DNA from: a virus
Lineage: Duplodnaviria > Caudoviricetes
Direction: 5' to 3' (one strand)
IMG/VR virus record: IMGVR_UViG_3300037483_000521
Span: 1 to 44,485 of that record
DNA length: 44,485 nt
Shown here: positions 2,073 to 44,468 of the stretch, piece after piece
Layout of the letters: every line of letters begins with the position of its first letter
Position numbering within the stretch: position 1 is the first letter of the stretch
The notes under the pieces: generated by a model
Seen by the model: the letters and a program-made list of their open reading frames with translations, nothing else
Database searches by the model: none
Told to the model about the DNA's origin: nothing
Made by a program: the position numbers and the translations under genes

Positions 2073-2573
2073 TTAGATGACGTACCGGACCTTGAGTGAA
2101 ATCGAGGTCGGGCCGCCGTTGAACACGGTTTCCACGACGCAGCAGATGTCGTACTCGCGTTTGGAGTCGGCGGTCAGGCCGAGCACCTCCCACAACTGCT
2201 TCTCGCTCTCGGCGTAGGTGTACTCGCCGGACTCGAAGGTCTGGTCGCTGTTGTTGAACGGCCCGCCCGTGAGGGCCAACGCGCTCGCGAACAGGTCGCG
2301 GTCAACCACGGCGCTGCCGTTGTCGGCCGTCTGGTACACGCCGATGTCGATGGCGCCGCCGGTCGTCGCGTCCGCGGCGCACAGCATCAATTGCGAGATG
2401 CGGGCGTTTGACGGCACCCGAACCATGCGCATGATGGTGTCATCCGCTTGATCCGCGGCCGGGGTTACAACCCCAATCGCTTCGACGAGTCGACTGTTCG
2501 ACTCGAAGGCGTCGCCCTTCACGATCGGGGTGGCCGTCGCGTTGGTGATGTAGGTAGAAAGTAAGTCAGCCAT
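2073..2573 (-). CDS. Capsid decoration/cement-like protein
   Basis: 166 aa directly after MCP; beta-sandwich pattern (MVRVPSNARI, IDIGVY, ISLKVRYV); GAGGA RBS. Confidence 0.65.
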   Translation of the reverse strand: MADLLSTYITNATATPIVKGDAFESNSRLVEAIGVVTPAADQADDTIMRMVRVPSNARISQLMLCAADATTGGAIDIGVYQTADNGSAVVDRDLFASALALTGGPFNNSDQTFESGEYTYAESEKQLWEVLGLTADSKREYDICCVVETVFNGGPTSISLKVRYVI

Positions 2574-2603
2574 TTTGGTGTCCTCTGTTCAGTTCAACCG
2601 CGA

Positions 2604-3494
2604 TTACGCGCGATACGATTCGATTGCGTAGACCTTGTTTTCCTGCAGACGGGTCGCGCCCACAGTCATGAAGGCGTATGCCTGCCAGGGCTCGCCCTGA
2701 AGATCGTGGCGCATCGAGATTGAGGTCGAGATGTCGTTCCACTGGCCGAGATACATGCCACTCTTAACCCATACTGGCAGCGTCACCTCGTTGGTGCCCG
2801 CCAGCTCGGTCTCGATCAGTTCGCACTGAATGAACTTAAAGCCCAGGAACTCGACCAGCTTGCCGTCGTTCAGCACCGGCTTGGAGTTGAAGTCCAGCGA
2901 GATGATCTGAATTTCGTCCAGAAGCGCGGCGTGGTCCTCGGCGGTGAGGCCGATGTATGCCTCTTCGATGTCGAAATCGACGTGGTTCTTCATCATCAGT
3001 TTCTTCACGGCCTTGATCTTGGCGACGTTCAGCTTGGAATTGGCGCCGCCGGTGGCAACGTCAACCTCATTGGCCGCGGTGAAGATGGTGCTGGTCGCGC
3101 CTTGCTCGCCGGTCTTGGCGGTACCGGTGAAGGCCGCGCAGATTTCCTCGTCCTTCTTGCGGCCCAGCGCCAGCGCGGCGTTGAGGACGTAAGTGCTCGA
3201 AGGATCCGTCAGGAGCCGGAGCTTGTCGTAGTTGTCGATGAGCTGCGGCAGGTCGTAGTCGACCGGGAATACCCAACGGCGATCGGTGGGCGCGTCGACG
3301 CGTCCCATCGGAGCGAAGCGAGTGGTAACCTTGGTGGCCTCGATGGCGCCGAACTGGTCGACGGGCGAAGCCTGCTTGCCAGAATGGCCGCCGGTCATTA
3401 CGGCACCGGCCAGCTTGGAGCCTTTCTGTTGGAGCAGCAGCTCGATGTTGGAGCTGTACTGCTGGTAAAAATGAGTCGGTATATTGATCGACAT
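2604..3494 (-). CDS. Major capsid protein
   Basis: 296 aa; QQYSSNIELLLQQKGSKL, DKLRLLTDP and GATRLQE motifs typical of BPP-1-like podovirus capsids; follows the scaffold gene. Confidence 0.9.
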   Translation of the reverse strand: MSINIPTHFYQQYSSNIELLLQQKGSKLAGAVMTGGHSGKQASPVDQFGAIEATKVTTRFAPMGRVDAPTDRRWVFPVDYDLPQLIDNYDKLRLLTDPSSTYVLNAALALGRKKDEEICAAFTGTAKTGEQGATSTIFTAANEVDVATGGANSKLNVAKIKAVKKLMMKNHVDFDIEEAYIGLTAEDHAALLDEIQIISLDFNSKPVLNDGKLVEFLGFKFIQCELIETELAGTNEVTLPVWVKSGMYLGQWNDISTSISMRHDLQGEPWQAYAFMTVGATRLQENKVYAIESYRA

Positions 3495-3669
3495 GGGTCA
3501 ACCCCTTAAAAACCGTTGAAATTCGGGTTTTCGAAGAGGTTCCCCTTTCCCCACGCGCTGCCTTGCGTGAGTACGATCAGACCTGGCTTCTGCGTTGTCG
3601 CACCCCGCCGGGTGACCGTGCTTTCCGAGCTGTCAGCCGGGCCTTTTAGGCTTGTCGGCTTATGTTGGT

Positions 3670-3711: not shown

Positions 3712-4563
3712 CTACGCTGCCTTCGCCTCCGGATTGAGGAACTGATGCACCCGATCCCATTCTGCCTTGGCATCCACGTTACCGCCCATCAGTTTCGCAG
3801 AGAACTCCTTGTCCTGTTTCAGCGCCGTAATGCGCGCCCGAGCGGCGTCTGGCGTCATGACGTTCCCAAATTTTTGTCCGCCGTTAGCAGCCACGAACGT
3901 ATCTTCGCCCAACTTTTGACCAATGCCGTAAAGAAATTTCATGGCGCCTTCGGTTCCGAGCGCTTTGCGCAGCCCCAACACCTGTTCGGCCGACATGCCG
4001 AATTCGCGGGCTACGCCGTCCACGATGGCCTTGTTCTTTTCGAGCGCGGCGCCCCATTCCTTGTTCAGCTTCTCAGCGCCTTCTTTTACCGCCAGCGCCT
4101 CGGCTTCCGCGGCCGTTTGCCGCGTCTGCGCCATGTGCGCATTGAACTTCTCAATCACCTTCGCCGCCTGGCCGGTCGTCAGATTGGCTTCGTGGAACCA
4201 CGTCGAGGCATTCTTGACGAACTCGGGGTCGGCGCCGTTCGGCGCGGTCAGCTTGTAATCCTCGGCTTTGGCCGGACGGCCGAGACGATCGAACACCTTC
4301 GTCATGCCCTCGGCGTCGTCGGCCTTCGGCATCCGGATGATCTGGTCCGCCGGCACGCCGAGCAACTTCTCCATGTTCATGGTGCTGCGCACGGCTTCCG
4401 CCGGGTCTTTCCAGCCTTTCAGTTCCGCGTATCCCTTGACCTCGGGCTCGAACTTCGCGGTCCAGACCTCGGGCGCACCGCCCGCTCCGGCAGCACCCGC
4501 TGCGCCTGCCGCACCTTCGTTTCCAGCGGCACCCGCCGCACCTGCTGCGCCTGCTTCAGCCAT
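3712..4563 (-). CDS. Capsid scaffolding/assembly protein
   Basis: Gly/Ala low-complexity N-terminus, LGRP..EDY and LNKEWG motifs, between portal and MCP. Confidence 0.85.
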   Translation of the reverse strand: MAEAGAAGAAGAAGNEGAAGAAGAAGAGGAPEVWTAKFEPEVKGYAELKGWKDPAEAVRSTMNMEKLLGVPADQIIRMPKADDAEGMTKVFDRLGRPAKAEDYKLTAPNGADPEFVKNASTWFHEANLTTGQAAKVIEKFNAHMAQTRQTAAEAEALAVKEGAEKLNKEWGAALEKNKAIVDGVAREFGMSAEQVLGLRKALGTEGAMKFLYGIGQKLGEDTFVAANGGQKFGNVMTPDAARARITALKQDKEFSAKLMGGNVDAKAEWDRVHQFLNPEAKAA

Positions 4564-7680: not shown

Positions 7681-9165
7681 TCAGTATGCCTCACAACCGG
7701 CCCCGTCCGCAAGCCTAGACCTGCGTTCCTTGGCCTTTTTCTTATTGAACACCACGTCGTGCTCGCCGCCACCCAGGAGCAGATACTGCAAAGCCTCGCA
7801 AACGTGGCTGTATTTGTTCTTGACCGGCGATTCATGGATTTGCGCCCCATTCGAGGACCGCACGAACTTGAAGTGGTAGCCGCTGACACACCCCTTGATG
7901 AGCGTCGGGCAGGTCGAGGACAGCAGGATCCCGGCGTTGCCATCCACCAGCCGGTTCAGGGTGTTGACCACCACCTCGCGGCGAATGTCGAAATCGTTCG
8001 AGGGCGCCGGGTACCACTTCCACTTCGTGTGCTGTTTCAGTATGTCGAGTGGAGTTTTCTCGTCGTTCTGCGAGCGCACGAGCCCTGCCGGGTCCGTCCA
8101 CCCCGCAGACACGTCTAAGTCTGGGTAGGTGCGCGCGATGTGGGCAGCCAGCAGGTCGGCGAAGCGGATCGTCCCGCAATCGTCAGTAACGAGTTCGTCC
8201 AGCAACAACCATCGCCCGTCCGCCAGGCGCTGCCCGATCACCGCGGCCGGGGTCAGCCCGAGGTCGGCGCCCACCAGCAGCGGCAGCCCGGCGACCGGTT
8301 CGATCTTCTCACTCGATACGTGGAGGTGGTGTCGGAACATCGGGTAGACCGGTCTGCCTTCCGCCACGAAACCGTACTCGCCGCGGATAAAAACCTTAAG
8401 ATAATCCTCGTCTTTGCCCACGCTGCTGAATTGGTAGTACCCGTTGCGCAGGTTCGGCAGGTTCTCGGCTTCCGGGGAGAGGCCCGAAGGCTGATCAAAA
8501 AACTGGATCAAGGGCTGACCGGGTTGCAGCGCGCCTAGGACGATGAGTTCGTTCGTCAGTTTCGCGACATCGGCCTCCATCTTCAGGTCGCTATGCGTAG
8601 CCATCCGGTAGTGCCACGACTCGGTATCAGGAGGATTGGTGTCGCAAATCAGTCCCGCCCACGTCGCGCCGCCCTTGCCTCCTTCTTTCTTGGGGTAACG
8701 ACCGACGCGGCCCGTCAGCGCGTCGAGAATAGACTTCGGAATAAACCGGCTTTCATTCAGCCACGCACCAGTCAGCTCTAGCGACATCACTTTTCTCACA
8801 TCATCATCGTTATCCAGGCCAAGAAAAAGGAACTCCATGTCGAGATCTTTCGTCTTAACTCGGTGGCTGAGAGGGGCCGACCAAGTGAACTTGCCGTAAT
8901 CGGCCGGAAGCCATTGCACCCACGTCGGTATCGTCGTGTTCTTCAAGTCGGGCATGGTGTTACGAACGACGGCCCATCTGGTACGACGTACGCCGTCACT
9001 GTCCGGGGCCTGCATTTGCGCACGGCGCAACAATTCAACCGCGCATGCGGTGGACTTGCCGGAACCGATCGGCCCCTTGATAACGCGAATAAAGGCGTTG
9101 GACTGGTGGAATGCCTTGACGACGGGGCCAGCCGGAGAATAGGAAATGACTTTGGGTTCAGCCAT
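7681..9165 (-). CDS. terL: Terminase large subunit
   Basis: Walker A GPIGSGKS, Walker B TGAWLNE, DTNPP coupling motif, nuclease motifs GADLG and HVCEALQY. Confidence 0.95.
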   Translation of the reverse strand: MAEPKVISYSPAGPVVKAFHQSNAFIRVIKGPIGSGKSTACAVELLRRAQMQAPDSDGVRRTRWAVVRNTMPDLKNTTIPTWVQWLPADYGKFTWSAPLSHRVKTKDLDMEFLFLGLDNDDDVRKVMSLELTGAWLNESRFIPKSILDALTGRVGRYPKKEGGKGGATWAGLICDTNPPDTESWHYRMATHSDLKMEADVAKLTNELIVLGALQPGQPLIQFFDQPSGLSPEAENLPNLRNGYYQFSSVGKDEDYLKVFIRGEYGFVAEGRPVYPMFRHHLHVSSEKIEPVAGLPLLVGADLGLTPAAVIGQRLADGRWLLLDELVTDDCGTIRFADLLAAHIARTYPDLDVSAGWTDPAGLVRSQNDEKTPLDILKQHTKWKWYPAPSNDFDIRREVVVNTLNRLVDGNAGILLSSTCPTLIKGCVSGYHFKFVRSSNGAQIHESPVKNKYSHVCEALQYLLLGGGEHDVVFNKKKAKERRSRLADGAGCEAY

Positions 9166-10260: not shown

Positions 10261-10297
10261 AGTACATTAGTATATTAGAATGTACTAATATACTAAT
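10261..10297. repeat. AT-rich overlapping inverted repeats
   Basis: ATTAGTATATTAG (10266-10278) / CTAATATACTAAT (10285-10297), plus AGTACATT / AATGTACT. Confidence 0.85.
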
Positions 10298-10344: not shown

Positions 10345-10388
10345 TCGCAATAGTAGTTAACCCAACAACACACGGAGCACACAACGCC

Positions 10389-10520
10389 ATGAAATGCACC
10401 TTGATCCTGCTTTTGTTGCTATCCGCCTGTTCGCCAAGCACACGAACGGTGTGCAGCGCCGCAATGAACGCGGACACCGTTTCCATAAAGCTGTGCCACC
10501 AAGAGCACACAACGCCATGA
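10389..10520 (+). CDS. Small lipoprotein (43 aa), not in the ORF track
   Basis: MKCTLILLLLLSAC... with lipobox LSAC; GGAG RBS; flanked by a 19-bp direct repeat. Confidence 0.7.
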   Translation: MKCTLILLLLLSACSPSTRTVCSAAMNADTVSIKLCHQEHTTP

Positions 10521-10654
10521 ACAACACGCCAACCAAACGCCTGCAGCTCTTCCAAGCCATCCTGTCCCTCTACAACTCACAGTATTACCGATGCGGCGAC
10601 TACCAAGCCAAGGTCAGGGCGCTGCACGCCTTGCTGCGCACTCGCACGCCTTGA
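10517..10654 (+). CDS. Hypothetical protein (45 aa)
   Basis: ATGA-coupled start, MNNTPTKRLQLF... Confidence 0.55.
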   Translation: MNNTPTKRLQLFQAILSLYNSQYYRCGDYQAKVRALHALLRTRTP

Positions 10655-11860: not shown

Positions 11861-12169
11861 ATGAAAACAGCACAACACACGCCGGGGCCTTGGGAAGTAG
11901 ACAGCGAAGAAATATACGGCGACTGCCGAAACCCAAAAGGCCAAGACTTAATCGCCCGCTTGCCTATGGAGTGCAACGCCGGCGGCCTATTAACAGACAG
12001 GAACCGCGCAGACGCCCGCCTCATCGCCGCGGCGCCTGACCTGCTGGCGGCGTTGAAAAACGCAGTACGATGCGGCGAGAGAGACGGAATGCCGGGCAAC
12101 CCAGGGAGCGCGCCAGCTTGGACTGTTTCAGCCAGAGCCGCCATCACAAAAGCCACGGGAGGCGCCTAG
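11861..12169 (+). CDS. Phage early protein with HTPGPW...DARLIAAAPDLL modules
   Basis: Very common phage accessory motif pair; RBS repeat upstream. Confidence 0.85.
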   Translation: MKTAQHTPGPWEVDSEEIYGDCRNPKGQDLIARLPMECNAGGLLTDRNRADARLIAAAPDLLAALKNAVRCGERDGMPGNPGSAPAWTVSARAAITKATGGA

Positions 12170-13436: not shown

Positions 13437-14038
13437 AACTTCATCCACACAATAGGCGACGCGCTCTCTACCACCACGTCCTCTTCCGTCCGATCCAGCA
13501 GGGTGTTCATCAGGTTGTACGTCCCGCGTCTGTACCCGGGCTTCAGCACCCTGATCCGGGCCGCCCCATCGGGCAGCCTAACTACGCACCATCGGCCCAT
13601 CGCATCCAGCGACACACTTGGTCGCGGCCGGTAATAGGCGATCACCCCATCCAGCGCGTCGGCGATCGAGTTGGCCGTCCGGTACCGCAGCGCTTCGAGC
13701 CCCGGCGCCTCCTGAGGCGGGGCGCTAACCCACCGCTCCCCTTTCACCCCTCCGGCGTGAACATTGAACTCCCCGTCAATCCAGCCCTTGATTGCCACTT
13801 TCCCCTCCCGGCTGGTGATGGCGCCGGGCTCGATCCCGGCGTTGACCAGCACTTCCTCGATGGGTACTCCTACAACATTGGCGAAAGCGGCGGCTTCGTC
13901 AAGCTGCATCCGTCGGACGCCCTTGAACGTCCGATTCATGGCAGCCGGATCCAGGTGCAGCATGGCCGCCAGGCGACGCTGGCTCAGTTGGTGGTCAGCC
14001 AGCTTGTCGATAAACCACTTCTTGTTGAACTGTGGCAT
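13433..14038 (-). CDS. XRE-family HTH repressor (CI-like)
   Basis: ATG at 14038 with AAGGAGG RBS; LSQRRLAAMLHLDPAAMNRTFKG HTH; C-terminal beta-rich domain loosely S24-like; divergent from the replication operon. Confidence 0.85.
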   Translation of the reverse strand: MPQFNKKWFIDKLADHQLSQRRLAAMLHLDPAAMNRTFKGVRRMQLDEAAAFANVVGVPIEEVLVNAGIEPGAITSREGKVAIKGWIDGEFNVHAGGVKGERWVSAPPQEAPGLEALRYRTANSIADALDGVIAYYRPRPSVSLDAMGRWCVVRLPDGAARIRVLKPGYRRGTYNLMNTLLDRTEEDVVVESASPIVWMKF

Positions 14039-14189
14039 ACGCCCTCCTTGGCGTGGATGATGAAATCCTCTACTTTTTGTAGGCACAACGCTTCCCCTTG
14101 GTTTTTGTTGTATTGCGAAAGCCGCCCTACATAGCAGAAAGCTCAACCACTTGCAAGCGGAGAATTTTACGGCGCCGCCACGCGCGGAC

Positions 14190-14218
14190 TTGACTTCCGG
14201 TGTTGTCGCGTTCACAAT
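14190..14218 (+). promoter_or_regulatory. Rightward promoter divergent from the repressor
   Basis: TTGACT-N17-CACAAT; CAACGCGTAT box at 14234-14243. Confidence 0.65.
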
Positions 14219-14416
14219 GCGGGGACATGATCGCAACGCGTATGTCGGGGGTTATATGGACGACGATACGATGAGCCACGGAGAACGAAGTGAAGGCGAT
14301 AGAGCCCGCGATAGGCGAGGCACGAAGTGTGGAACCGAGCCGTCAAGTCATTGTGCGCCTCTCAGCGCAGGACGGTCGCGGCAATTTAATCAACCATGAG
14401 CCCGGAGGATTTGCAC

Positions 14417-14584
14417 ATGTCACAAGGTCAATTTACGAAAGAAGAAGCGAAGGCGAGCGAAGATGCACTGAAAGAAATTATGGAGGCGTTCCCGAAGAAA
14501 AAGATGATGGAGTTTATCGGGCATTTCAACGATATCTTCCTGTTCCTCAGTGCAGCGAAGAAAAAGGCGCCGAGCGAAAAGTAG
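14417..14584 (+). CDS. Small helical hypothetical protein (55 aa)
   Basis: GGAGGA RBS; amphipathic helical sequence. Confidence 0.6.
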   Translation: MSQGQFTKEEAKASEDALKEIMEAFPKKKMMEFIGHFNDIFLFLSAAKKKAPSEK

Positions 14585-14633
14585 TGCAAAGCCTCATAAC
14601 CGCGAATCCGACGGACAGGACCGGAGGCGAGCG

Positions 14634-14780
14634 GTGACGGGCGAATACCTAGAAAGCAAACCCGTTCGGCTGCCGGTACGTATTTGTCCGGTAGGCGCCG
14701 GCTCACCTAACGCGGCGATACCGATTATCATCTTGGTGTTGCTGGTGCTTTTTTTCATTATACCGGCGATCCTAAAATGA
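14634..14780 (+). CDS. Small membrane protein (48 aa)
   Basis: GGAGG RBS, GTG start, C-terminal hydrophobic helix, ATGA overlap with the resolvase. Confidence 0.55.
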   Translation: MTGEYLESKPVRLPVRICPVGAGSPNAAIPIIILVLLVLFFIIPAILK

Positions 14781-15250
14781 TCCTCGGCATCGACCCCGGT
14801 CTTTCCGGCGCCCTCGCCTTCTACGATCCGGAGGCGAATACTCTGTCGATCTACGACATGCCGACCTTCACAGTATCCGTCAACAAGAAGCAACGACGGA
14901 TACTGGACGAGGACGAACTGTGCCGCATTATCGGCGTCTACCTGCTCAACCACGAACTCACCGCGATCATCGAGAACGTCCACTCCCTGCCCGAGCAGGG
15001 TGTGGCATCTTCCTTCAAGTTCGGCGTCTGCTTCGGCGCCATCCGTGGCGCCCTGGCTGCCCTCCAAGTTCCGCGCCGGTATGTCGAACCCGCTGTCTGG
15101 AAGCGTCACTTCAAGACGACATCCGATAAAGACGCCGCCAGGCGAAGAGCATCCGAGCTGCTGCCGGCGCACGCAGGGCTTTGGCCGCTCAAGAAGCACG
15201 ACGGCCGAGCCGAGAGCGCGTTGTTGGCTTACTTTGGAGCGCGGACATGA
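14777..15250 (+). CDS. RuvC-like Holliday junction resolvase
   Basis: ILGIDPGLSGA, IIENV, SSFKFG, PAVWK and DGRAESALLA motifs. Confidence 0.9.
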   Translation: MILGIDPGLSGALAFYDPEANTLSIYDMPTFTVSVNKKQRRILDEDELCRIIGVYLLNHELTAIIENVHSLPEQGVASSFKFGVCFGAIRGALAALQVPRRYVEPAVWKRHFKTTSDKDAARRRASELLPAHAGLWPLKKHDGRAESALLAYFGART

Positions 15251-15293
15251 CCCCCATCAAGCGCAAGCGGTTGGGGAAGGAGGGATAGGATGA
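15246..15293 (+). repeat. 48-bp cassette repeat, copy 1 (encodes mini-ORF MTPIKRKRLGKEG, 15247-15288)
   Basis: Identical to 15525-15572. Confidence 0.95.
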
Positions 15294-15529
15294 GATGGTT
15301 ACTTAGAAAGCTTGGATATCTAAAAGTTGATTACGGGTTTGCTTGTGGCAGACACTGGATCGAGATAGACGGCAAGACCATAGCTCAAACACCCGGTGAC
15401 GACTTCTGGCTGCGTGATGAGGATATCCGCAATCTCGCCGTTGCCGTGATACCAGGATGTATATGGAAAAATGGTCCGGCTTCATGGCAATGGGACCGAT
15501 GGATTAACGGGCACGGAGAAATGCCATGA
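15290..15529 (+). CDS. Cassette cargo gene A, hypothetical, Trp-rich (79 aa)
   Basis: Start lies in repeat 1 and stop in repeat 2; lower GC than the core genes. Confidence 0.75.
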   Translation: MRWLLRKLGYLKVDYGFACGRHWIEIDGKTIAQTPGDDFWLRDEDIRNLAVAVIPGCIWKNGPASWQWDRWINGHGEMP

Positions 15530-15572
15530 CCCCCATCAAGCGCAAGCGGTTGGGGAAGGAGGGATAGGATGA
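15525..15572 (+). repeat. 48-bp cassette repeat, copy 2 (mini-ORF 15526-15567)
   Basis: Identical to 15246-15293. Confidence 0.95.
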
Positions 15573-15748
15573 AAAACACAACTGGGCTTTACAAGCATCA
15601 GCGAGACAATCAAGGCAGGCGACGGTGCTTAACGTCTTATGCGCCCGTAAACAAACTGGTTGTGACCAAACCGGCACCTACCTGCGAGGCGTGCGGGTTT
15701 AGGATTGATTCAAACGCACATCAACTGTATTGCAAGGATAAGCCATGA
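15569..15748 (+). CDS. Cassette cargo gene B, possible zinc-binding protein (59 aa), not in the ORF track
   Basis: MKNTTGLYKH...PTCEACGFRIDSNAHQLYCKDKP; start in repeat 2, stop in partial repeat 3. Confidence 0.7.
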   Translation: MKNTTGLYKHQRDNQGRRRCLTSYAPVNKLVVTKPAPTCEACGFRIDSNAHQLYCKDKP

Positions 15749-15763
15749 CCCCCATCAAGCGCA
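15744..15763 (+). repeat. Partial (20-bp) third copy of the cassette repeat
   Basis: CATGACCCCCATCAAGCGCA forms the start of the 15745 gene. Confidence 0.9.
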
Positions 15764-16035
15764 TCTCCCGTGATCCGACAGAGGAAATGTTAGGAAATGG
15801 TTGTGATGCCATGTTTCGGATAAACGGTGTCCACGCAGTTTTGACTAAAGACGTAAGCGGTATATTCCAAGCCATGTTCGACGCCGCGCCTGACATCGAA
15901 ACGGAGGCGGAGAAGCGGGCCGAGGAATGGATTGCCGATGTAGATGATCCGCACATATATAATCTTCGCACTCCAATAGCAGAAAGAAAATTTGGCTTTC
16001 ATCCTAATCATGGAATGGAAAAACAATGCGCTTAA
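15745..16035 (+). CDS. Hypothetical protein C (RDPTEEM...FDAAP modules)
   Basis: 96 aa; shares a 41-bp segment with the next gene. Confidence 0.75.
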   Translation: MTPIKRISRDPTEEMLGNGCDAMFRINGVHAVLTKDVSGIFQAMFDAAPDIETEAEKRAEEWIADVDDPHIYNLRTPIAERKFGFHPNHGMEKQCA

Positions 16036-16298
16036 AATTATTAGCAAGGGAGCCGACGAAGAAGATGGTTCAGGCTTTACGCCTTTCGTTGGACGATGAA
16101 CACTGTTCTGATTTTGAAGCCTTGCGACGTGTGTTCGACGTCGCCCCTGACATCGAATCGGAGGCGGAGAAGGTTGCTCGTATTGAATTGGCTGAAAGAT
16201 TCGGTATCTATTCTCCGTGGTCGCCAGAGAATGATACGGATATTGGCAAAGCCATTGAAATCATCCGTGCCTTGCTGTGCGAACGGGGGAAGATATGA
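16026..16298 (+). CDS. Hypothetical protein D, paralog of C
   Basis: REPTKKM...FDVAPDIESEAEK. Confidence 0.75.
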   Translation: MRLKLLAREPTKKMVQALRLSLDDEHCSDFEALRRVFDVAPDIESEAEKVARIELAERFGIYSPWSPENDTDIGKAIEIIRALLCERGKI

Positions 16299-17002
16299 AT
16301 CTATATGTTGTTGATGTGTTGAAACGCATAGCTAACCATGCTGGCGACAACCCGGCACAAGACGCGGCTTCTGCTCTTTCTATTGCTTTTGAACACGCCA
16401 GCGAAATCGAACGCCTCACCCTCGACCTCCAATCCTCCCACGCGCTCACCCGCGAGCTGAACGACCAGATGGTGCGGCTTCAGCAGGATAACCGGAATCT
16501 GAATGAGCAGCTAAACGAGGCGCAATCGAACTATCAATTCATGGTTGACCGAGCGGCAAATGAAAAGCTAGATGGATATCGTGAATTGGGCGCGAAGTGC
16601 GCTTTGCTAGAAGAACGCGCCGAGAAAGCCGAAGCCGAACTCGCCCAAGCCAAGAACATGCCAGTAACAAGAAAACATGAAGTTGAATTCTGGAATGACG
16701 CGTTCAATGAAGTAGCTCGCCGCCTCAAGGAAGCCGAAGCGAGAGAGGCGGGGATGGTGGAGGCGCTTGAAAAGGCCCGAGCCACTCCGGTTTACCAACC
16801 AGGAGGGTGTCCATCTTGTCTAATTCAGGACATTGCAGATAAAGCCCTCCCCCTCGCCTCCCCTCGGGCGAAGCAGATATTGGAGGATGCGGCGCGCTAC
16901 CGTTGGCTTGCGGCAAACCCAGGCGATCGCGCTTCGCTAGAGTGGCTGGAAGCCGACACGATTGACGCCTACATAGACGAACAGCGCGGCGTCAAGTCGT
17001 GA
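16295..17002 (+). CDS. Mosaic coiled-coil accessory protein
   Basis: ATGA-coupled start; EIERL, ERAEKAEAELA and DAARYRWL modules. Confidence 0.8.
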   Translation: MNLYVVDVLKRIANHAGDNPAQDAASALSIAFEHASEIERLTLDLQSSHALTRELNDQMVRLQQDNRNLNEQLNEAQSNYQFMVDRAANEKLDGYRELGAKCALLEERAEKAEAELAQAKNMPVTRKHEVEFWNDAFNEVARRLKEAEAREAGMVEALEKARATPVYQPGGCPSCLIQDIADKALPLASPRAKQILEDAARYRWLAANPGDRASLEWLEADTIDAYIDEQRGVKS

Positions 17003-17124
17003 AACTTCGCATGGACCCGCTGGGCTACATCATCCTTGCTGTGATTTTGTCCATGCTGGGCGGTTACGTCAACGACACAACGAACGAGGAACCCGATGAG
17101 CGAACGAGCACTCCGGCACAATGA
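16999..17124 (+). CDS. Small membrane peptide (41 aa)
   Basis: GTGA-coupled start; PLGYIILAVILSMLGGY hydrophobic helix. Confidence 0.45.
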   Translation: MKLRMDPLGYIILAVILSMLGGYVNDTTNEEPDERTSTPAQ

Positions 17125-17674
17125 GGGCAAGCCGATCCTCCACACGGCGCTGACCTTCCCCGAAGCTCTGCGCGGTGTCGCCCGCGTCACCGCTTACGGC
17201 GAGAAGAAATACGCCCGCTTCAACTACCTGAAAGGCGCCCCGGCGTCGCAGTCCATCGACTGCGCGCTGCGGCACCTGCTCGCCTGGTACAACGGCGAGG
17301 ACAAGGACGCCGAATCGGGGCTGAACCACCTCGACCACTTTGTATGGAACGCGATGCGCCTGGCCGACGAGCTGCAAAGGCGCCCGGAGCTGGATGATAG
17401 GCCGGGGAAGCAGGCGACGCCGGTTGGTGTTGCGCGGCCGTTCAAGCCCGGCGATCGCGTGGTCTACAGCGTTGCCGGCCCTGTTGGTTGGGAGCGCATG
17501 GATTGGGCGGCGGTAGCCGAACTTCGGTTAGGCGAACAATACACAATAAGAAGCGTTGAGTCTAACGCCGATAACAAGATCGTGTACATAACAGAGGATA
17601 AGATGAGTCTTGAAATCCACCCAGGCCACTTCACGCATGCCCCAACTTCTCCCGCACCAAGTCAAGGGGGCTGA
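17096..17674 (+). CDS. dATP/dGTP diphosphohydrolase (DUF5664-like) with an extra C-terminal domain
   Basis: RHNEGKP, VARVTAYGEKKYARFNYLKG, ALRHL and DAESGLNHLDH motifs. Confidence 0.85.
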   Translation: MSERALRHNEGKPILHTALTFPEALRGVARVTAYGEKKYARFNYLKGAPASQSIDCALRHLLAWYNGEDKDAESGLNHLDHFVWNAMRLADELQRRPELDDRPGKQATPVGVARPFKPGDRVVYSVAGPVGWERMDWAAVAELRLGEQYTIRSVESNADNKIVYITEDKMSLEIHPGHFTHAPTSPAPSQGG

Positions 17675-18938
17675 ATGGCTCGCCAGCAAACGCCACGCCC
17701 TGCTCGCGGACGAAATGAGAGTCGGGAAGGCGGTGCAGACCGTCGTCGCCTGCGATCTGCTCGACGCCCAGCGGATCCTGGTGATCTGTCCTGCCGTCGC
17801 CAGGATAAACTGGCTGCGCGAATTTGGAAAGTTTTCTTCTCGCTCCCTGCTCACAAGCGCCTTACTTTCGTCAACCTGCTCCGCGCTATCGAGGGGAGTC
17901 AACGTCGTCTCCTACGATCTGGTAGACACATATGAAGCCCAGCACCTTCTCGGCGACACAGACGCGTTCGACCGCTTCGACGTGCTGGTTCTCGATGAGA
18001 GCCACTACCTGAAGAGCGCCGATGCCCAACGGTCCCAAGTTATTCTCGGAAGAGGCGGCCTTGTGCATCGAGCGAGACATGTTTGGGCGCTGTCCGGCAC
18101 CCCGGCGCCCAACCACTACGCCGAGCTGTGGCCCCTGCTGCGAGTGTTTGGTGTGTACAAGGGCGGCTACGATGAATTTGTACGGGAATTCTGCACCGGT
18201 TTTCGCGGGCCATACGGCTTTCAGATTACAGGATCGAAAAATACGATGAAACTTCGTGAACTGCTGAGCAAAGTGATGCTGCGTCGGACCATGAAAGAGG
18301 TGCGGCCCGAGATGCCCGCGATCGAGTTTGATGAGTTCGTGGTGCCCGGCGTTGCTTGGCCGAGCAACTCGCAAGATCAAGATGCGTTTTGGGTTGAAGA
18401 ACGCAAAGTATCCGAGACGTTAGGCGCGAATCTCCGCATCGAGGACGTTCCTGCTCCCACCCTGCGCCGCTACACCGGCCTCGCCAAAGTCCCAGCTGTG
18501 GTCGATCTGGTCAAGCTGCGGCTCGACGGCGGCACCAAGAAGATTGTTCTGTTCGCGTACCACCGCGAAGTGATCGAACAGCTTATGGAGCTGTTTCCGG
18601 GCGAGGCCATCGCCGCGGTCGCGCTGTACGGGCAGACTTCCGCCCAGCAGCGGGAGAAAAACATCCGAATGTTTCAAGAGGCTCCGTTTTGCAAAGTGTT
18701 CATCGGCCAAATCGTCGCCGCCGGCACCAACATTGATTTATCTGTTTCAGATGAAGCAATATTTGTGGAAGCCTCCTGGGTGCCAGGCGAGAACGCGCAA
18801 GCCGCTGCTCGCCTGCAAAACGTCAACAAGAACCGCCTGATCACGGCGACCTTCGTGGCACTGGCTGATTCGATCGACGAGCGCATCCAGACCACACTGC
18901 GCCGCAAGACGAAAGACTTGACGGCTTTGTTTGCCTAG
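17637..18938 (+). CDS. SNF2-family helicase
   Basis: LLADEMRVGK, VICPA, LDESH, LSGTP, GTNIDL and QAAARL motifs. Confidence 0.9.
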   Translation: MPQLLPHQVKGAEWLASKRHALLADEMRVGKAVQTVVACDLLDAQRILVICPAVARINWLREFGKFSSRSLLTSALLSSTCSALSRGVNVVSYDLVDTYEAQHLLGDTDAFDRFDVLVLDESHYLKSADAQRSQVILGRGGLVHRARHVWALSGTPAPNHYAELWPLLRVFGVYKGGYDEFVREFCTGFRGPYGFQITGSKNTMKLRELLSKVMLRRTMKEVRPEMPAIEFDEFVVPGVAWPSNSQDQDAFWVEERKVSETLGANLRIEDVPAPTLRRYTGLAKVPAVVDLVKLRLDGGTKKIVLFAYHREVIEQLMELFPGEAIAAVALYGQTSAQQREKNIRMFQEAPFCKVFIGQIVAAGTNIDLSVSDEAIFVEASWVPGENAQAAARLQNVNKNRLITATFVALADSIDERIQTTLRRKTKDLTALFA

Positions 18939-19775: not shown

Positions 19776-19876
19776 AAGCCGAGCGGCAGATGGATGTGTT
19801 CTTTGCGGTGCTGTCAATCGCGGTCGGCGCGGGTGCTTGTCTGTTGATCGCGCTGGGCGTGATGGGGTGGATATGA
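19772..19876 (+). CDS. Small membrane peptide (34 aa)
   Basis: AGGAGG RBS; hydrophobic helix; ATGA overlap with the nuclease. Confidence 0.55.
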   Translation: MKAERQMDVFFAVLSIAVGAGACLLIALGVMGWI

Positions 19877-21033
19877 CTTCCAACCTCCCCGCCCACTCCA
19901 AACTCGGCGCCAGCCAGATGCACCGGTGGGAGAAATGCCCCGGCTCCGTCCGCCTGTCCGTCGGCATCGAGTCCGTCTCGTCCTCCTACGCCGCGGAAGG
20001 GACGGTGGCGCATGAGATCGCGGCGCTTTGCTTGAAAGAGTCGGAGAGCCCGAGTTTTTTTGTAGGCCAGATTCATGTCTATGAAGGGCACCGAATTGAA
20101 GTCACGGAAGAGCTGGCCGACGCCGTGCTCGTCTATCTCACGACCGTCCGCGGTGACTACGCCGATTCCCCGCATCGCCCGGAGCTGCTGATCGAGCACA
20201 AGTTCCACCTCAAGGACATCCACAACGATCTGTACGGCACGGCCGACTGCGTGGCGCTGTACCGCGAGCACAAAATGCTCCGGGTCTACGATTATAAACA
20301 CGGAGCGGGTGTCGCGGTCGAGGTCGAGGACAACCCGCAGCTCAAGTATTACGCCCTGGGCGCGTTGCTGACCTGCGGCGCCCCAGTGCGTGATGTGGAG
20401 ATGGTTATCGTCCAGCCCCGCTGCCCGCACCCCGATGGCCCGGTGCGTCGTCAGATCATCAAGGCGATCGACCTGCTGGAATTCTCGGCCGACCTGCTGG
20501 ATGCGGTTCATGCCACGGAAGCACCCGACGCCCCGCTCCACGATGGCGATTGGTGCCGCTGGTGCCCCGCCGCCGGTATCTGCCCCCAGCTCGCCAAGCG
20601 CGCCAACGAAACGGCCAAACTGGAATTCGCCCCGCAGTTGTCCTACGACCCGAAGGTGCTGGCTGAAACCCTTGACACCCTGCCACGGCTGGAAGCGTGG
20701 GTCGAGAGTGTAAGGCAGTTCGCCTACGGCGAAGCCTTGCACGGCCGGATCCCGCCCAACTACAAGCTGGTCGAGAAGCGCGCCACCCGCAAGTGGATTG
20801 ACGACCACACCGCCGAGATCGAGCTGAAGAAGCTCGGCTTGGCCGAGAGCGATCTGTACGCCGAGCGCAAGATTCTCTCCCCGGCGCAGATCGAGAAGAA
20901 GATCGGCAAGGTCAACAAACCTGCACTGGCGCCGCTGGTGCAGTCGGTGTCAAGTGGGATGACCTTGGTACACGCCAGCGACAACCGCGAGGCGATCAAA
21001 AACGATGCGAAGTCGGATTTCGAGGGGCGCTGA
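19873..21033 (+). CDS. Cas4-like PD-(D/E)XK exonuclease (DUF2800 family)
   Basis: HSKLGAS..RWEKCPGS, EGTVAHE, GTADC, DYKHG, QLKYYALG and WCRWCPAAGICP (Fe-S cysteines). Confidence 0.9.
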   Translation: MTSNLPAHSKLGASQMHRWEKCPGSVRLSVGIESVSSSYAAEGTVAHEIAALCLKESESPSFFVGQIHVYEGHRIEVTEELADAVLVYLTTVRGDYADSPHRPELLIEHKFHLKDIHNDLYGTADCVALYREHKMLRVYDYKHGAGVAVEVEDNPQLKYYALGALLTCGAPVRDVEMVIVQPRCPHPDGPVRRQIIKAIDLLEFSADLLDAVHATEAPDAPLHDGDWCRWCPAAGICPQLAKRANETAKLEFAPQLSYDPKVLAETLDTLPRLEAWVESVRQFAYGEALHGRIPPNYKLVEKRATRKWIDDHTAEIELKKLGLAESDLYAERKILSPAQIEKKIGKVNKPALAPLVQSVSSGMTLVHASDNREAIKNDAKSDFEGR

Positions 21034-21871: not shown

Positions 21872-22459
21872 GTGCAAATGACGACTGATACGAAAAAAGC
21901 TGAAAACATAATGACTCCGGAGTTCCGGGTGTCTTATCCGAGTGTGTTCAAGGCCAAACTGAACGAGCTGTCCAAGAAGATGGAATTCTCGCTCGTGGCG
22001 TTGTTCAAGAAAGGCGAAAACCTGGACGCGCTGAAGAAGGAAGCCGAGCGCGCCGTAATTGCCCGCTGGGGCAGTGACAAGACCAAGTGGCCGAAGAACC
22101 TCCGCAGTCCGTTCCGCGACCAGGGCGAACGCGAGAGTGACGGCTATGAAGCCGGCGCAGTGTTCATGAATCTGAAGTCATCGCAACGTCCCGGGCTGGT
22201 CGATGGTGGCAACAACGACATCATCAACGAGACGGATTTCTACGCTGGCTGCTACGCCCGCGCCACGCTTCGTGCGTATGCGTACCCGAAGCCTGGCGTG
22301 ACCGGTCAGACACCGGGCGTCGCCTTCGGATTACAGAACATCCAGAAGCTGCGCGATGGCGAGTCCCTGTCCGGCCGCATGAAGGCGCAGGACGAGTTCG
22401 AGCCGGTAGCCGACGCAGAAGTGAGCGCGGGCGGCGACGCCGGCTCGCTGTTCGGTTAA
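21872..22459 (+). CDS. Single-stranded DNA-binding protein (DUF2815 / T7 gp2.5-like)
   Basis: RVSYPSVF, SPFRD, RPGLVD, FYAGCYARA and GVAFGLQNIQKLRDGE motifs; acidic tail ending in F-G. Confidence 0.9.
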   Translation: MQMTTDTKKAENIMTPEFRVSYPSVFKAKLNELSKKMEFSLVALFKKGENLDALKKEAERAVIARWGSDKTKWPKNLRSPFRDQGERESDGYEAGAVFMNLKSSQRPGLVDGGNNDIINETDFYAGCYARATLRAYAYPKPGVTGQTPGVAFGLQNIQKLRDGESLSGRMKAQDEFEPVADAEVSAGGDAGSLFG

Positions 22460-26029: not shown

Positions 26030-26424
26030 AAAAGCAAGTGCTGTATGTGGCGCACGCCATCCCGTCGAGCGATCACCCGCGGAACCTGATAAAAATCGGC
26101 GTGTCGTCGAGCGTACACTTGCGGCTGCGTGACTTACAAAAATGTTTTCCGTTTGAAATACGCCTTGTATATAAATCTAGGCCGCTAAACAAGTGGAACG
26201 CGCGCAGATTAGAGAAGCTTCTGCACTGTCATTTCAAGCCGTATCGTCTACGCGGAGAGTGGTTTGCCACGGACTTAAGATACGCGGATTTTATAAACAG
26301 CCAAACCGATGCTGATCCACTTAACTTCCCGGAGTTCCATGAGTACGCACGCTCTACACTGAAAACGTTGGTTCGCGGAAAAACAAAAATGTTAAAAGAA
26401 GGACGGAACTGGCGTGAAAACTAA
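26026..26424 (+). CDS. GIY-YIG superfamily (T5orf172-like) protein
   Basis: LYV...IKIGVS...RLRDLQ...LEKLLH...RLRGEWF; lower GC. Confidence 0.8.
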   Translation: MKKQVLYVAHAIPSSDHPRNLIKIGVSSSVHLRLRDLQKCFPFEIRLVYKSRPLNKWNARRLEKLLHCHFKPYRLRGEWFATDLRYADFINSQTDADPLNFPEFHEYARSTLKTLVRGKTKMLKEGRNWREN

Positions 26425-27595
26425 ACTTGATTCGGCCCTCGAACTGGCGAAAGACGGCTTCCACGTTTTTCCGCTCGTACAAAATTCCAAGTTGCCACTT
26501 ATTGACGGTTGGCAACGGAAAGCCACACGCGACCCGGAGCAAATCCGCCGTTGGTGGACGTGTCCCGTCATGGGCATCGAACAGGACAACAACATCGGCA
26601 TCTCCACCTCCCGCTTCGGCGACGACCAGGCGCTCGTCGTCATCGACGTGGACAACAAGGGTGACAAACATGGCGACGACGAACTGCTCAAGCTCGAACT
26701 CTCGGGGTTCGATTTCCCTGCCACGTTTGAACAGGTTACACCTACGGGTGGTCGACACCTTGTTTACCTCGTGGATAAACCGCTCCGGCAGGGTGCCAAC
26801 GTACTGGCAGCGGGACTGGATATACGCTCTCGCGGAGGATTTATTGTTGGAGTGGGAAGCACCCTCGACGGGCGAGAGTACGTCCGAGCTGGCGTTTGCG
26901 GTGAACTATCTCGCGCGCCATCTTGGCTTGTCGATAAGTGCGCTGACGCGCATCCTGATCGACCTGAGCGAGTTCACGCACCGGCACCTCCCGTCAATCA
27001 GGATCGGGCTGCACTACGAGCCATCGAGTACCTCGCCTCGCACGCACCACTAGCGGTCGAGGGCCAGGGCGGCGACCAAACCACGTTCCAGGTGGCGGCA
27101 CGGCTGAAGGACTTCGGCGTGGACGAGGCCGCGGCAGTTACGCTGATGAGCCACTGGAACGAACGCTGCTCGCCTCCGTGGCCCGCCGATGAATTGGCCG
27201 CGAAGGTGGCGAACGCCTACCGCTACGGCAAGGAAACGCCGGGGTCGTCGGCGCCGGAGGTTCAGTTTCCGAAAGTGCCAACTACTGATTCGGTAGAAAT
27301 TAGTAGCAAATTAGTATCTACCGCTCACCCCTTCGACATCCTGAATCGGGAGTTCGCGTTCGTGCTGGCCGGCGGGGGCAGTCACATCCTTTGGGAAACG
27401 GTGGACGCCAAGGGGCGGCCGGTTGTAGAGCACCTTAACCTGACCGCGTTCCACCAGAAGTTTGCGAGCTGGACGATGAACCTCGGCAAAAAAAACGAGC
27501 CTACGACAGAGTTGTGGATGAAGGACAAACGACGCCGCGGGTATGACGGCATCTGCTTTGACCCGAGCGCGGGTCCAGAGGTGGTGATTGGATGA
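26414..27595 (+). CDS. Bifunctional primase-polymerase with PriCT-like domain (N-terminal part of a split primase-helicase)
   Basis: VFPL..NSKLP, NIGI, VIDVD, TPTGGRHL, DIRSRGG and WNERCSPPW motifs. Confidence 0.88.
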   Translation: MKTKLDSALELAKDGFHVFPLVQNSKLPLIDGWQRKATRDPEQIRRWWTCPVMGIEQDNNIGISTSRFGDDQALVVIDVDNKGDKHGDDELLKLELSGFDFPATFEQVTPTGGRHLVYLVDKPLRQGANVLAAGLDIRSRGGFIVGVGSTLDGREYVRAGVCGELSRAPSWLVDKCADAHPDRPERVHAPAPPVNQDRAALRAIEYLASHAPLAVEGQGGDQTTFQVAARLKDFGVDEAAAVTLMSHWNERCSPPWPADELAAKVANAYRYGKETPGSSAPEVQFPKVPTTDSVEISSKLVSTAHPFDILNREFAFVLAGGGSHILWETVDAKGRPVVEHLNLTAFHQKFASWTMNLGKKNEPTTELWMKDKRRRGYDGICFDPSAGPEVVIG

Positions 27596-28647
27596 AAAAA
27601 TTCTACAACCTGTGGCGCGGGTTTGCGGTGGAGCCGATTCAACAAGGAGAACTTGTCAAACCGGAGTGGCAACGATCCGTCGACATGTGGTGCGAACATG
27701 TCGAGCAGAACGTGTGCGGCGGCGACAAGAAGCTGACCCGGTGGCTGATCGGGTACTTCGCGCACATGATGCAGTGCCCGGGGATCAAGCCCCTGGTGGC
27801 GCTGGTGTTCCGCGGTGATAAAGGTGTTGGCAAGAACGCTGCTGTGGAGAGGGTTGGCGCTCTGCTGGGGAGCCATTTTCTTGTCACTAGCAATAGGCGC
27901 TATCTTGTTTCTAATTTCAACTCTCATTTCGAGAACCTTATTCTTTTCGTGTTGGACGAAGCCAGTTGGCCGGGCGACAAACAAGCGGAAGGAATTCTGA
28001 AAGACTTGATAACTGGAACCCAGCATCTGATCGAGCACAAGGGCGAGAAGCCCTACTCCGTGGCGAACCTGATGCGCGTCATTATCATGGGCAACGAATC
28101 GTGGATCGCGCCCATGTCGCACGACGAGCGCCGGTTCGCGGCATTCAGCGTGGGAGAAGGGCGGAAGCAAGACCGGAACTTTTTTAAGCTCATGCGGGAG
28201 GGAATGGAGGCTGGCGGGTATCGTGTGCTGCTCCGCTACCTACTCGACTACGATATTTCCGGCCTGGATTTTAACGAGGCGCCAGTAACTCAGGAAATGC
28301 ACGATCAAAAAGAAGAAAGCCTCGGCGACGTGTATAAGTGGTGGCTCGACTGCCTCATCGAAGGCCAGATCGTCGGCAGCGACTTCGGCTCGGAGTGGCC
28401 GCAAGAAATCGAAACCGAAAGGTTCCGCGCTGCCTTCCGTCGTTACAGTAAGGATCGGAACATACGCTCGCGGTTTCCCGATTCACGCGCCATCGGAAAA
28501 CTCCTGAAGCACTGCGCCCCGACGATGGTCAAGCACCGCGCGCGCAAGGATAACGAGATGCCCTACCTGTACCGGCTGCCGGCGCTGGAAGATGCGCGGG
28601 AATCTTGGAGCAAATTTATCGGCCACCAAGTTTCGTGGAACGACTAG
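27592..28647 (+). CDS. SF3-type helicase / DUF5906-like NTPase (C-terminal part)
   Basis: YNLWRGF, Walker A GDKGVGKN, Walker B VLDE, LKDLIT and DERRF motifs. Confidence 0.88.
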   Translation: MKKFYNLWRGFAVEPIQQGELVKPEWQRSVDMWCEHVEQNVCGGDKKLTRWLIGYFAHMMQCPGIKPLVALVFRGDKGVGKNAAVERVGALLGSHFLVTSNRRYLVSNFNSHFENLILFVLDEASWPGDKQAEGILKDLITGTQHLIEHKGEKPYSVANLMRVIIMGNESWIAPMSHDERRFAAFSVGEGRKQDRNFFKLMREGMEAGGYRVLLRYLLDYDISGLDFNEAPVTQEMHDQKEESLGDVYKWWLDCLIEGQIVGSDFGSEWPQEIETERFRAAFRRYSKDRNIRSRFPDSRAIGKLLKHCAPTMVKHRARKDNEMPYLYRLPALEDARESWSKFIGHQVSWND

Positions 28648-30234: not shown

Positions 30235-30284
30235 TGGAGCCGGTGAGGCGATTTGAACGCCTGACCTACTGATTACGAATCAGT
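30235..30284 (-). mobile_element. attP core: 3' half of tRNA-Thr(CGT)
   Basis: Minus strand ACTGA-TTCGTAA-TCAGT AGGTC AGGCG-TTCAAAT-CGCCT CACCGGC-T-CCA; no D-arm or 5' acceptor strand; integrase nearby. Confidence 0.9.
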
Positions 30285-30411
30285 TTTTATACCCTGAAAA
30301 AACAATGCGTTGCTGTTTCAACAACTATTTATCCCGAGAGAACCGCGTGCTGTTGCTATTTTAGCAACACCTTTCTCGCTTAGATTGCGACTAGCCTGCG
30401 ACCTGGGGGTA

Positions 30412-44342: not shown

Positions 44343-44468
44343 AACCGTGGGCACATACAAGTCAAATTCTTGTCCTGAGACCCCAGCTAAAATGGTGACT
44401 GAGTTTGGGATAGGCACGAACACCGAAGGCACGTCGTACGTCCACATTCCACCCCAGGTCACTCTGGG
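44343..44468. repeat. Terminal direct repeat, copy 2
   Basis: Identical to 1-126. Confidence 0.95.

Follow-up and report, generated by a model that had tools for sequence, protein, structure and literature searches.

The region downstream of ruvC in the viral DNA analysed here (the window, a stretch of 44,485 nucleotides) raises the question of how two small genes came to be stacked there between copies of the same short repeat, and what kind of recombination the repeat might serve. Features of the window lie on the plus strand unless stated otherwise. The array is bordered upstream by ruvC (14777..15250), which encodes a RuvC-like Holliday junction resolvase (PHROG 1770, E 3e-29), and consists of cargo gene A (15290..15529, 79 aa, no known family) and cargo gene B (15569..15748, 59 aa, with a C-terminal CxxC..H..C motif and no family match), followed by gene C (15745..16035). 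As the initial annotation had reported, a 48-bp sequence is present twice, with identity at 48 of 48 bp (15246–15293 and 15525–15572), and its beginning recurs as a third, partial copy at 15744–15763, which matches copy 1 over 20 bp and copy 2 over 22 bp. The rough chance expectation is ~5e-19 for the 48-mer pair and 0.004 for the 20-mer pair, and no further match to the 20-mer with up to five mismatches was found on either strand of the whole window. Both full copies also have the composition that had been claimed for them, as each contains the TGA of the upstream gene, a 13-codon ORF, the Shine-Dalgarno (SD) sequence AAGGAGG and the ATG of the next gene. The cargo genes had further been described as lower in GC. 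The GC contents of A and B (0.49 each) are indeed below those of the window (0.59) and ruvC (0.61), but low GC is no mark of cargo because genes C (0.47) and D (0.49) are equally low.

The origin of the repeat can be traced through its two halves. The left half (L island, copy 1 at 15246..15265) corresponds to the first 20 bp of gene C (encoding MTPIKR), and the right half (R island, copy 1 at 15266..15293) comprises the last codons of another gene, X (KRLGKEG*), with the SD AAGGAGG (15277–15283) and the cargo ATG. The TGA of ruvC overlaps the ATG of the first L. Searches of 2.9 million viral contigs with an L 18-mer and with an R 21-mer led to the same two contigs, in which either pattern has a single match. 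These are record G002 (its locus is designated L003), a close relative with a RuvC 90% identical in amino acid sequence to that of the window, and record G001 (locus L002), a different phage that carries a RecE-like exonuclease. L and R are conserved at 97–100% in both, and L is identical to the start of gene C in the window, L002 and L003. In both relatives the halves lie apart and in the reverse order compared with the 48-mer (R…L), so that the arrangement is X-R-cargo-L-C. In L003, gene X comes next after ruvC and is followed by R, a 53-aa gene, L and gene C; in L002, gene X is followed by R, two small genes, L and a collapsed gene C. The match between R copy 1 and the end of X extends over 28 of 29 bp in L003 and 21 of 21 bp in L002. 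At the protein level, three of four X-family proteins end in RKRLGKEG or RKRLGKEGT and the fourth in KQLGKEG, and the MTPIKRIS start is found in 5 of 11 aligned C-family proteins.

Because the relatives carry R and L in the opposite order, the 48-mer is the head-to-tail, in-frame L|R junction of an R-cargo-L unit. It is a chimera in which the 20 bp of L, from the start of gene C, are followed by the 28 bp of R, from the end of gene X together with SD and ATG, and the mini-ORF of 13 codons (15247..15288 in copy 1, 15526–15567 in copy 2) represents the N-terminus of C fused in frame to the C-terminus of X at an Arg codon. The mini-ORF is predicted to act as a translational coupler. The second L|R junction (15523..15572) consists of the 48-mer with a GC extension on its left, and the native L island (15736..15789), which runs from the end of the cargo (KP*) into the start of gene C, matches L003 over 54 bp at 91% and L002 over 29 bp at 100%. 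The proposal that the 48-mer is a dedicated hairpin site is thus replaced by one of two coding ends that stand in reverse order in the relatives.

The slot between R and L is variable, with four unrelated fills in three phage records. Between the R and L cores lie 239 nt for A, 179 nt for B, 161 nt for the L003 gene and 284 nt for the L002 pair; all six pairwise comparisons indicate unrelated sequences (155–198 of 200 shuffles score as well), and blastp gave no cross-hit among the five slot proteins. The relatives carry other cargo; had they carried the same two genes, this would have spoken against the initial idea of exchangeable cargo. That idea, of cargo entering a fixed site with a ready-made coupler, holds as far as a slot with SD and ATG, stop-start coupling and four unrelated fills is concerned, and is not supported in its assumption of a dedicated recombinase site. 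Neither A nor B matched PHROG, Pfam, NCBIfam or PADLOC, and the ESM Atlas provided no usable function for A or C. Gene A has 21 unnamed relatives that have the N-terminal ~55 aa in common and differ in their tails, and none of six candidates for gene A in viral contigs was confirmed. For B, a comparison with cluster representatives gave 23 matches, of which some are spurious repeat proteins, and its homologs likewise have common cores and different tails. Four of the 19 B-like proteins that were read end in KP, like B and the cargoes of both relatives, which is only a hint. No promoter-like site was found inside the array (15246–15763), and the region 14000–17700 contains two such sites compared with 2.2 expected, a comparison to be read with the caveat that the host promoter type may differ. 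No terminator-like site was found within the array.

Gene C belongs to a mosaic family built of three conserved blocks with swapped middles, the third block being absent from the window's copy. In P0025, for example, the first middle is as in gene C of the window and the second is different. Gene D (16026..16298) is a tandem paralog of C with different middle segments, and the two have a common 41-bp block at 93% identity; the C-D pair forms a second tandem expansion adjoining the array. No homolog of gene C was found in named phages and plasmids, and an alignment-based search of viral contigs with C returned only the contig of L003 and one unrelated match.

L and R are part of a longer ordered scaffold, in which near-identical islands of 20–65 bp are separated by unrelated, in-frame DNA in five records with at least three backbones. 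The scaffold spans 15250–17105 in the window, 5470–7100 in L003 and 2510–3580 (minus strand) in L002, and is also present in L071 and L097. The islands lie inside genes as well as at gene boundaries. G001 (46 kb, terminal repeats, completeness estimate 62%) has only four islands in common with the window (21–49 bp, 93–100% identity), in the same order, while two fragments, G004 and G003, have three islands (122 bp) and five segments (441 bp) in common with it, respectively. When eight core and recombination proteins of the window were compared by tblastn, none was found in G001 or G004, one in G003 and four in G002. Two islands, I7 (16719..16767) and I8 (16846..16883), both inside gene E, are common to five phage records, and the segments between them are all different (78, 66, 147, 111 and 81 nt) and in frame in all five. 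Four-fold sites in I7 and I8 are invariant (11 of 11), whereas in RuvC the window agrees with its closest relative at 50 of 72, a contrast that is partly circular because the islands were picked for conservation; more generally, the islands were found by conservation, and their high identity partly reflects this selection of the data. Fusions of one island to another recur, examples being the joining of L to the last C block (L002) and of E1 to I7 (L097).

Similar patterns were observed outside these islands. When 17096–17674 of the window is compared with 7089–7603 of L003 and with L071, the dATP/dGTP diphosphohydrolase gene is seen to have the same start and end in L003 and another N-terminal domain there. 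One contig from sequencing run X1, with a depth of 3.9, joins 17034 to 17637, and the skipped stretch falls at this gene. A small gene of PHROG 1273 (window 11861–12169) shows the same island pattern when compared with L105 in G003 (~7990–8320), with 33-bp and 50-bp islands at 94–97% identity around an unrelated middle.

We consider it likely that the 48-mer consists of fused L and R boundary sequences, which elsewhere flank a variable slot, and that the A-B array was built there by homologous recombination. A single illegitimate event would join L back to R at the Arg codon common to both ends; only one base is in common at the join with both known X alleles, and for a microhomology of 4 bases one would have to assume an X allele other than those observed. 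The product, ruvC-L|R-cargo-L-C, would hold a cargo unit between direct L repeats, coupled through the 13-codon ORF, and crossovers in R and L could swap the cargo of different phages. A second unit would be stacked when two genomes that differ in cargo undergo an unequal crossover in L or, with the same product, when an R-cargo-L circle integrates, and the predicted outcome of stacking is exactly ruvC-L|R-A-L|R-B-L-C. An array formed in this way would expand and contract like an accordion, and no site-specific recombinase would be required. The GC left extension is present at copies 2 and 3 and at the native L of both relatives and absent at copy 1 beside ruvC, and this pattern counts for stacking because it agrees with a prediction of the model. 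The exact common lengths between records are ragged, 20–32 bp for L and 16–25 bp for R. Against the proposal count the length of 20–22 bp, which is short for homologous recombination, and the lack of an observed intermediate or of a second genome with the L|R junction.

The enzymes for such exchanges are probably encoded by the phage itself. The window represents a complete-looking 44.5-kb temperate podophage with BPP-1/BcepC6B-like head and tail genes, PolA, a primase and a tyrosine integrase, the nearest named terminases being ~41% identical. Beside PolA and an SF2 helicase it carries a DUF2800/PD-(D/E)XK exonuclease (19837..21033; PHROG 69, PF10926), a putative recombination partner, and a Gp2.5-like ssDNA-binding/annealing protein (21872..22459; PHROG 112, E 7e-37), a putative recombinase. 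According to Lopes 2010 (PMC2896510), Gp2.5-like recombinases are found in the same gene context and one of them has annealing activity in vivo; because of this matching context, the Gp2.5-like protein is a candidate recombinase, and the exonuclease and annealing protein would act with RuvC or host functions. The nuclease/SSB/RuvC set and the phage integrase had both been named earlier as candidates; the former remains likely, in the role of general homologous recombination, and the latter is not an IntI.

The initial annotation had suggested looking for other cargo, empty sites and circles, and neither a further junction nor an empty site or circle came to light: neither the two viral contig matches nor the 23 metagenome matches contained a second L|R junction, an empty ruvC-C site or a circle (0/2 and 0/23), and the X1 contigs contained no joint across the array, contigs being a form of data that loses low-frequency variants and does not distinguish a circle from an integrated A of equal abundance. 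The 23 metagenome matches came from a scan with the L 18-mer; none continues as gene C or as the junction or holds another island, and they are taken as chance matches. One of them, at ~4001–4018 of metagenome contig L073, falls within a spacer of a CRISPR array with 60 repeats; this spacer has 35 bases, of which 19 match L, and the other spacers have only short, chance-level matches to the five phage records. By RuvC, a single locus of 61 is a close relative, namely the fragment L003, and neither L nor R is present at the 60 others. Neither a relative of the E proteins nor the native L 23-mer (a pattern that is blind to the L|R junction) was present in the genome collection, and named phages and plasmids gave no DNA match.

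Three other histories were weighed against homologous exchange at L and R. The array could have arisen once, through separate illegitimate events or through one duplication with later replacement, and been kept for its translational coupling, with the islands not reused as crossover sites; the islands might even be mere leftovers of a recently shared module. The restriction of the L|R junction to a single genome fits such a one-off history, as do the ATGA overlaps and SD-like ends that provide microhomology at most gene boundaries here, and most mosaic boundaries are without conserved sequences in the account of Pope 2011. However, every one of the four slot fills and five I7–I8 segments would then require a pair of independent illegitimate events, at almost identical positions each time, and the combination of middles in P0025 is also difficult to reconcile with this history, which we regard as unlikely. 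The possibility that the array results from assembly, by chimeric joining of strain variants at the repeat, has to be considered for any metagenomic contig, particularly one whose 22-bp end fold-back looks artefactual, and the order of the pieces on either side of a 48-bp repeat cannot be read from a contig graph by itself. In a separate assembly (Logan contigs of X1), the 48-mer is one piece with a depth of 25.4 between single-copy pieces at 11–13.5, A has single-copy depth, and there is no alternative branch or joint. Since the depth of the 48-mer is about twice that of its single-copy flanks, exactly two copies fit these data. X1, the only run containing the stretch, may be the source sample and is hence not independent. 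An artefact is the least probable of the readings and very improbable.

A site-specific, integron-like system, in which a recombinase would read the 48-mer hairpin or an R/L stem and insert circular cassettes at L, is very improbable as well. Such a system would account for the two identical junctions, for the promoterless cassettes with no promoter-like site inside the array, and for the position of the junction at the centre of an imperfect palindrome, as expected of a circle closed at the base of the R/L stem. The imperfect stem proposed for the repeat can indeed be drawn, but its fold is at chance level (z −0.42 as DNA and −0.56 as RNA), with folds as good as that of the repeat in 66 of 200 DNA and 55 of 200 RNA shuffles, and the hairpin was rejected as a recombination site on these grounds. 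The R/L duplex does not pair better than shuffled sequences (p 0.43–0.90) and is weakened by the L003 allele, and the I7/I8 duplex gives p 0.09–0.49 against dinucleotide shuffles, with a register that differs between phages. The more general idea that islands around a variable segment pair into a stem was also rejected, based on dinucleotide shuffles (p 0.09–0.90) and core-gene codon recoding (p 0.08–0.38); the pairing was nominal only against small-gene recoding (p 0.01–0.11) and a random coding background (p 0.01–0.49), values that reflect composition. The inverse core of attC is RYYYAAC, and the GTTRRRY/RYYYAAC pair is absent from the repeats on both strands of 15200–15800, where a single core-like word is present, within gene B. 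With the IntI model TIGR02249 (cut-off 265) the integrase reaches 33 bits; it has an arm-binding domain and adjoins, at ~630 bp, a tRNA-like fragment (30244–30304, minus strand; Rfam 32.8 bits) that is the probable attP core; ARAGORN predicted no tRNA gene, and the fragment was the only match with Rfam. G001 has R and L and, at a completeness estimate of 62%, no homolog of this integrase. Finally, a dedicated site would not be expected to show ragged common lengths between records (16–32 bp for L and R taken together).

Homologous exchange at L and R, the reading that we favor, has parallels among known phage elements. The linker model of phage mosaicism is said to go back to Botstein, and conserved boundary sequences in mosaic temperate phages were reportedly described by Clark and colleagues in 2001. 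Boundary or linker sequences have been proposed for mosaic temperate phages in several accounts (PMC3029335, PMC2327257, PMC2839356, PMC3945230), and repeat-flanked insertions, such as Island3 gene 68 and LRRHood with its 29-bp repeats, are described in one of them (PMC3029335). The array appears to work in the same way, and both testable defining features of such sequences were found: short gene-end sequences are conserved in otherwise different phages and flank unrelated genes. The ragged common lengths would fit exchange by homologous recombination within the sequence. Unlike these elements, the repeated unit here is a chimera that unites two boundaries in reversed order and is translated as a mini-ORF, and the islands also lie within genes and are the only DNA common to the window and G001. 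In T4-type phages, PeSL cassettes occupy intergenic positions, number ~50 per genome and contain a terminator stem-loop as well as a sigma-70-like promoter (Arbiol 2010, PMC2839356). They resemble the array in the stop codon-SD-ATG arrangement between small genes of unknown function, which is present in the repeat here, and their shuffling by recombination between copies is akin to what is proposed for the array; for PeSLs circles are possible and, as that report presents them, no dedicated recombinase is known. The repeat described here differs in being coding, in its 2–3 copies and in having neither a sigma-70-like promoter nor a stable stem-loop (z −0.4 to −0.6). In Arthrobacter cluster AU phages, an intergenic 32-bp repeat occurs in six copies in all members examined (bioRxiv 10.1101/2020.01.10.891226), likewise punctuating an array of small genes that, by that account, are lost or moved between phages, whereas here coding ends make up the repeat, whose full form was seen in a single genome. 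Integron attC cassettes also occur phage-borne (PMC9892861), and like them the array consists of promoterless single genes separated by a repeat. However, it has no attC cores, no significant hairpin, no IntI and no evident fixed crossover point, and on present evidence the array is neither an integron nor a new recombinase system.

A search of mostly freely accessible papers turned up no description of a chimeric boundary that is translated as a mini-ORF coupler, or of an island scaffold like the present one. How phages gain and stack small genes, and whether illegitimate joins or short homologies are responsible, is an old and still debated question (PMC3029335, PMC3945230, PMC2327257). The locus offers an unusually clean and testable case, with two boundaries, their native order, four alternative cargoes and an identified candidate annealing system, and the same islands are the only DNA common to unrelated phage backbones (G001 compared with the window). 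A more far-reaching proposal, which we put forward with considerable doubt, is that the islands may be a standard plug format among unrelated phages of one host community, with the L|R junction as the closed end of circular R-cargo-L cassettes. If this were so, whole small genes and segments would be swapped combinatorially, forming a natural diversity-generating library of small phage proteins, and circular cassettes would add genes singly with translational coupling built in.

Several other features of the sequence were recorded. The window has a terminal overlap of 126 bp (1–126 and 44343–44468), and after it, where the contig ends (44436–44485), a perfect fold-back of 22 bp; as no fold-back is present in the left-end copy, this is probably an assembly artefact rather than a telomere. 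The primase/helicase is split into two overlapping ORFs (26414–27595 and 27592–28647), of which one corresponds to the N-terminal and the other to the C-terminal part of PHROG 1156. A 19-bp direct repeat (10375–10393 and 10503–10521) and a 35-bp inverted match (10263–10297) lie close to where the early region begins, and in L105 an array of 15-bp tandem repeats occupies 17603–17888, at the end of record G003.
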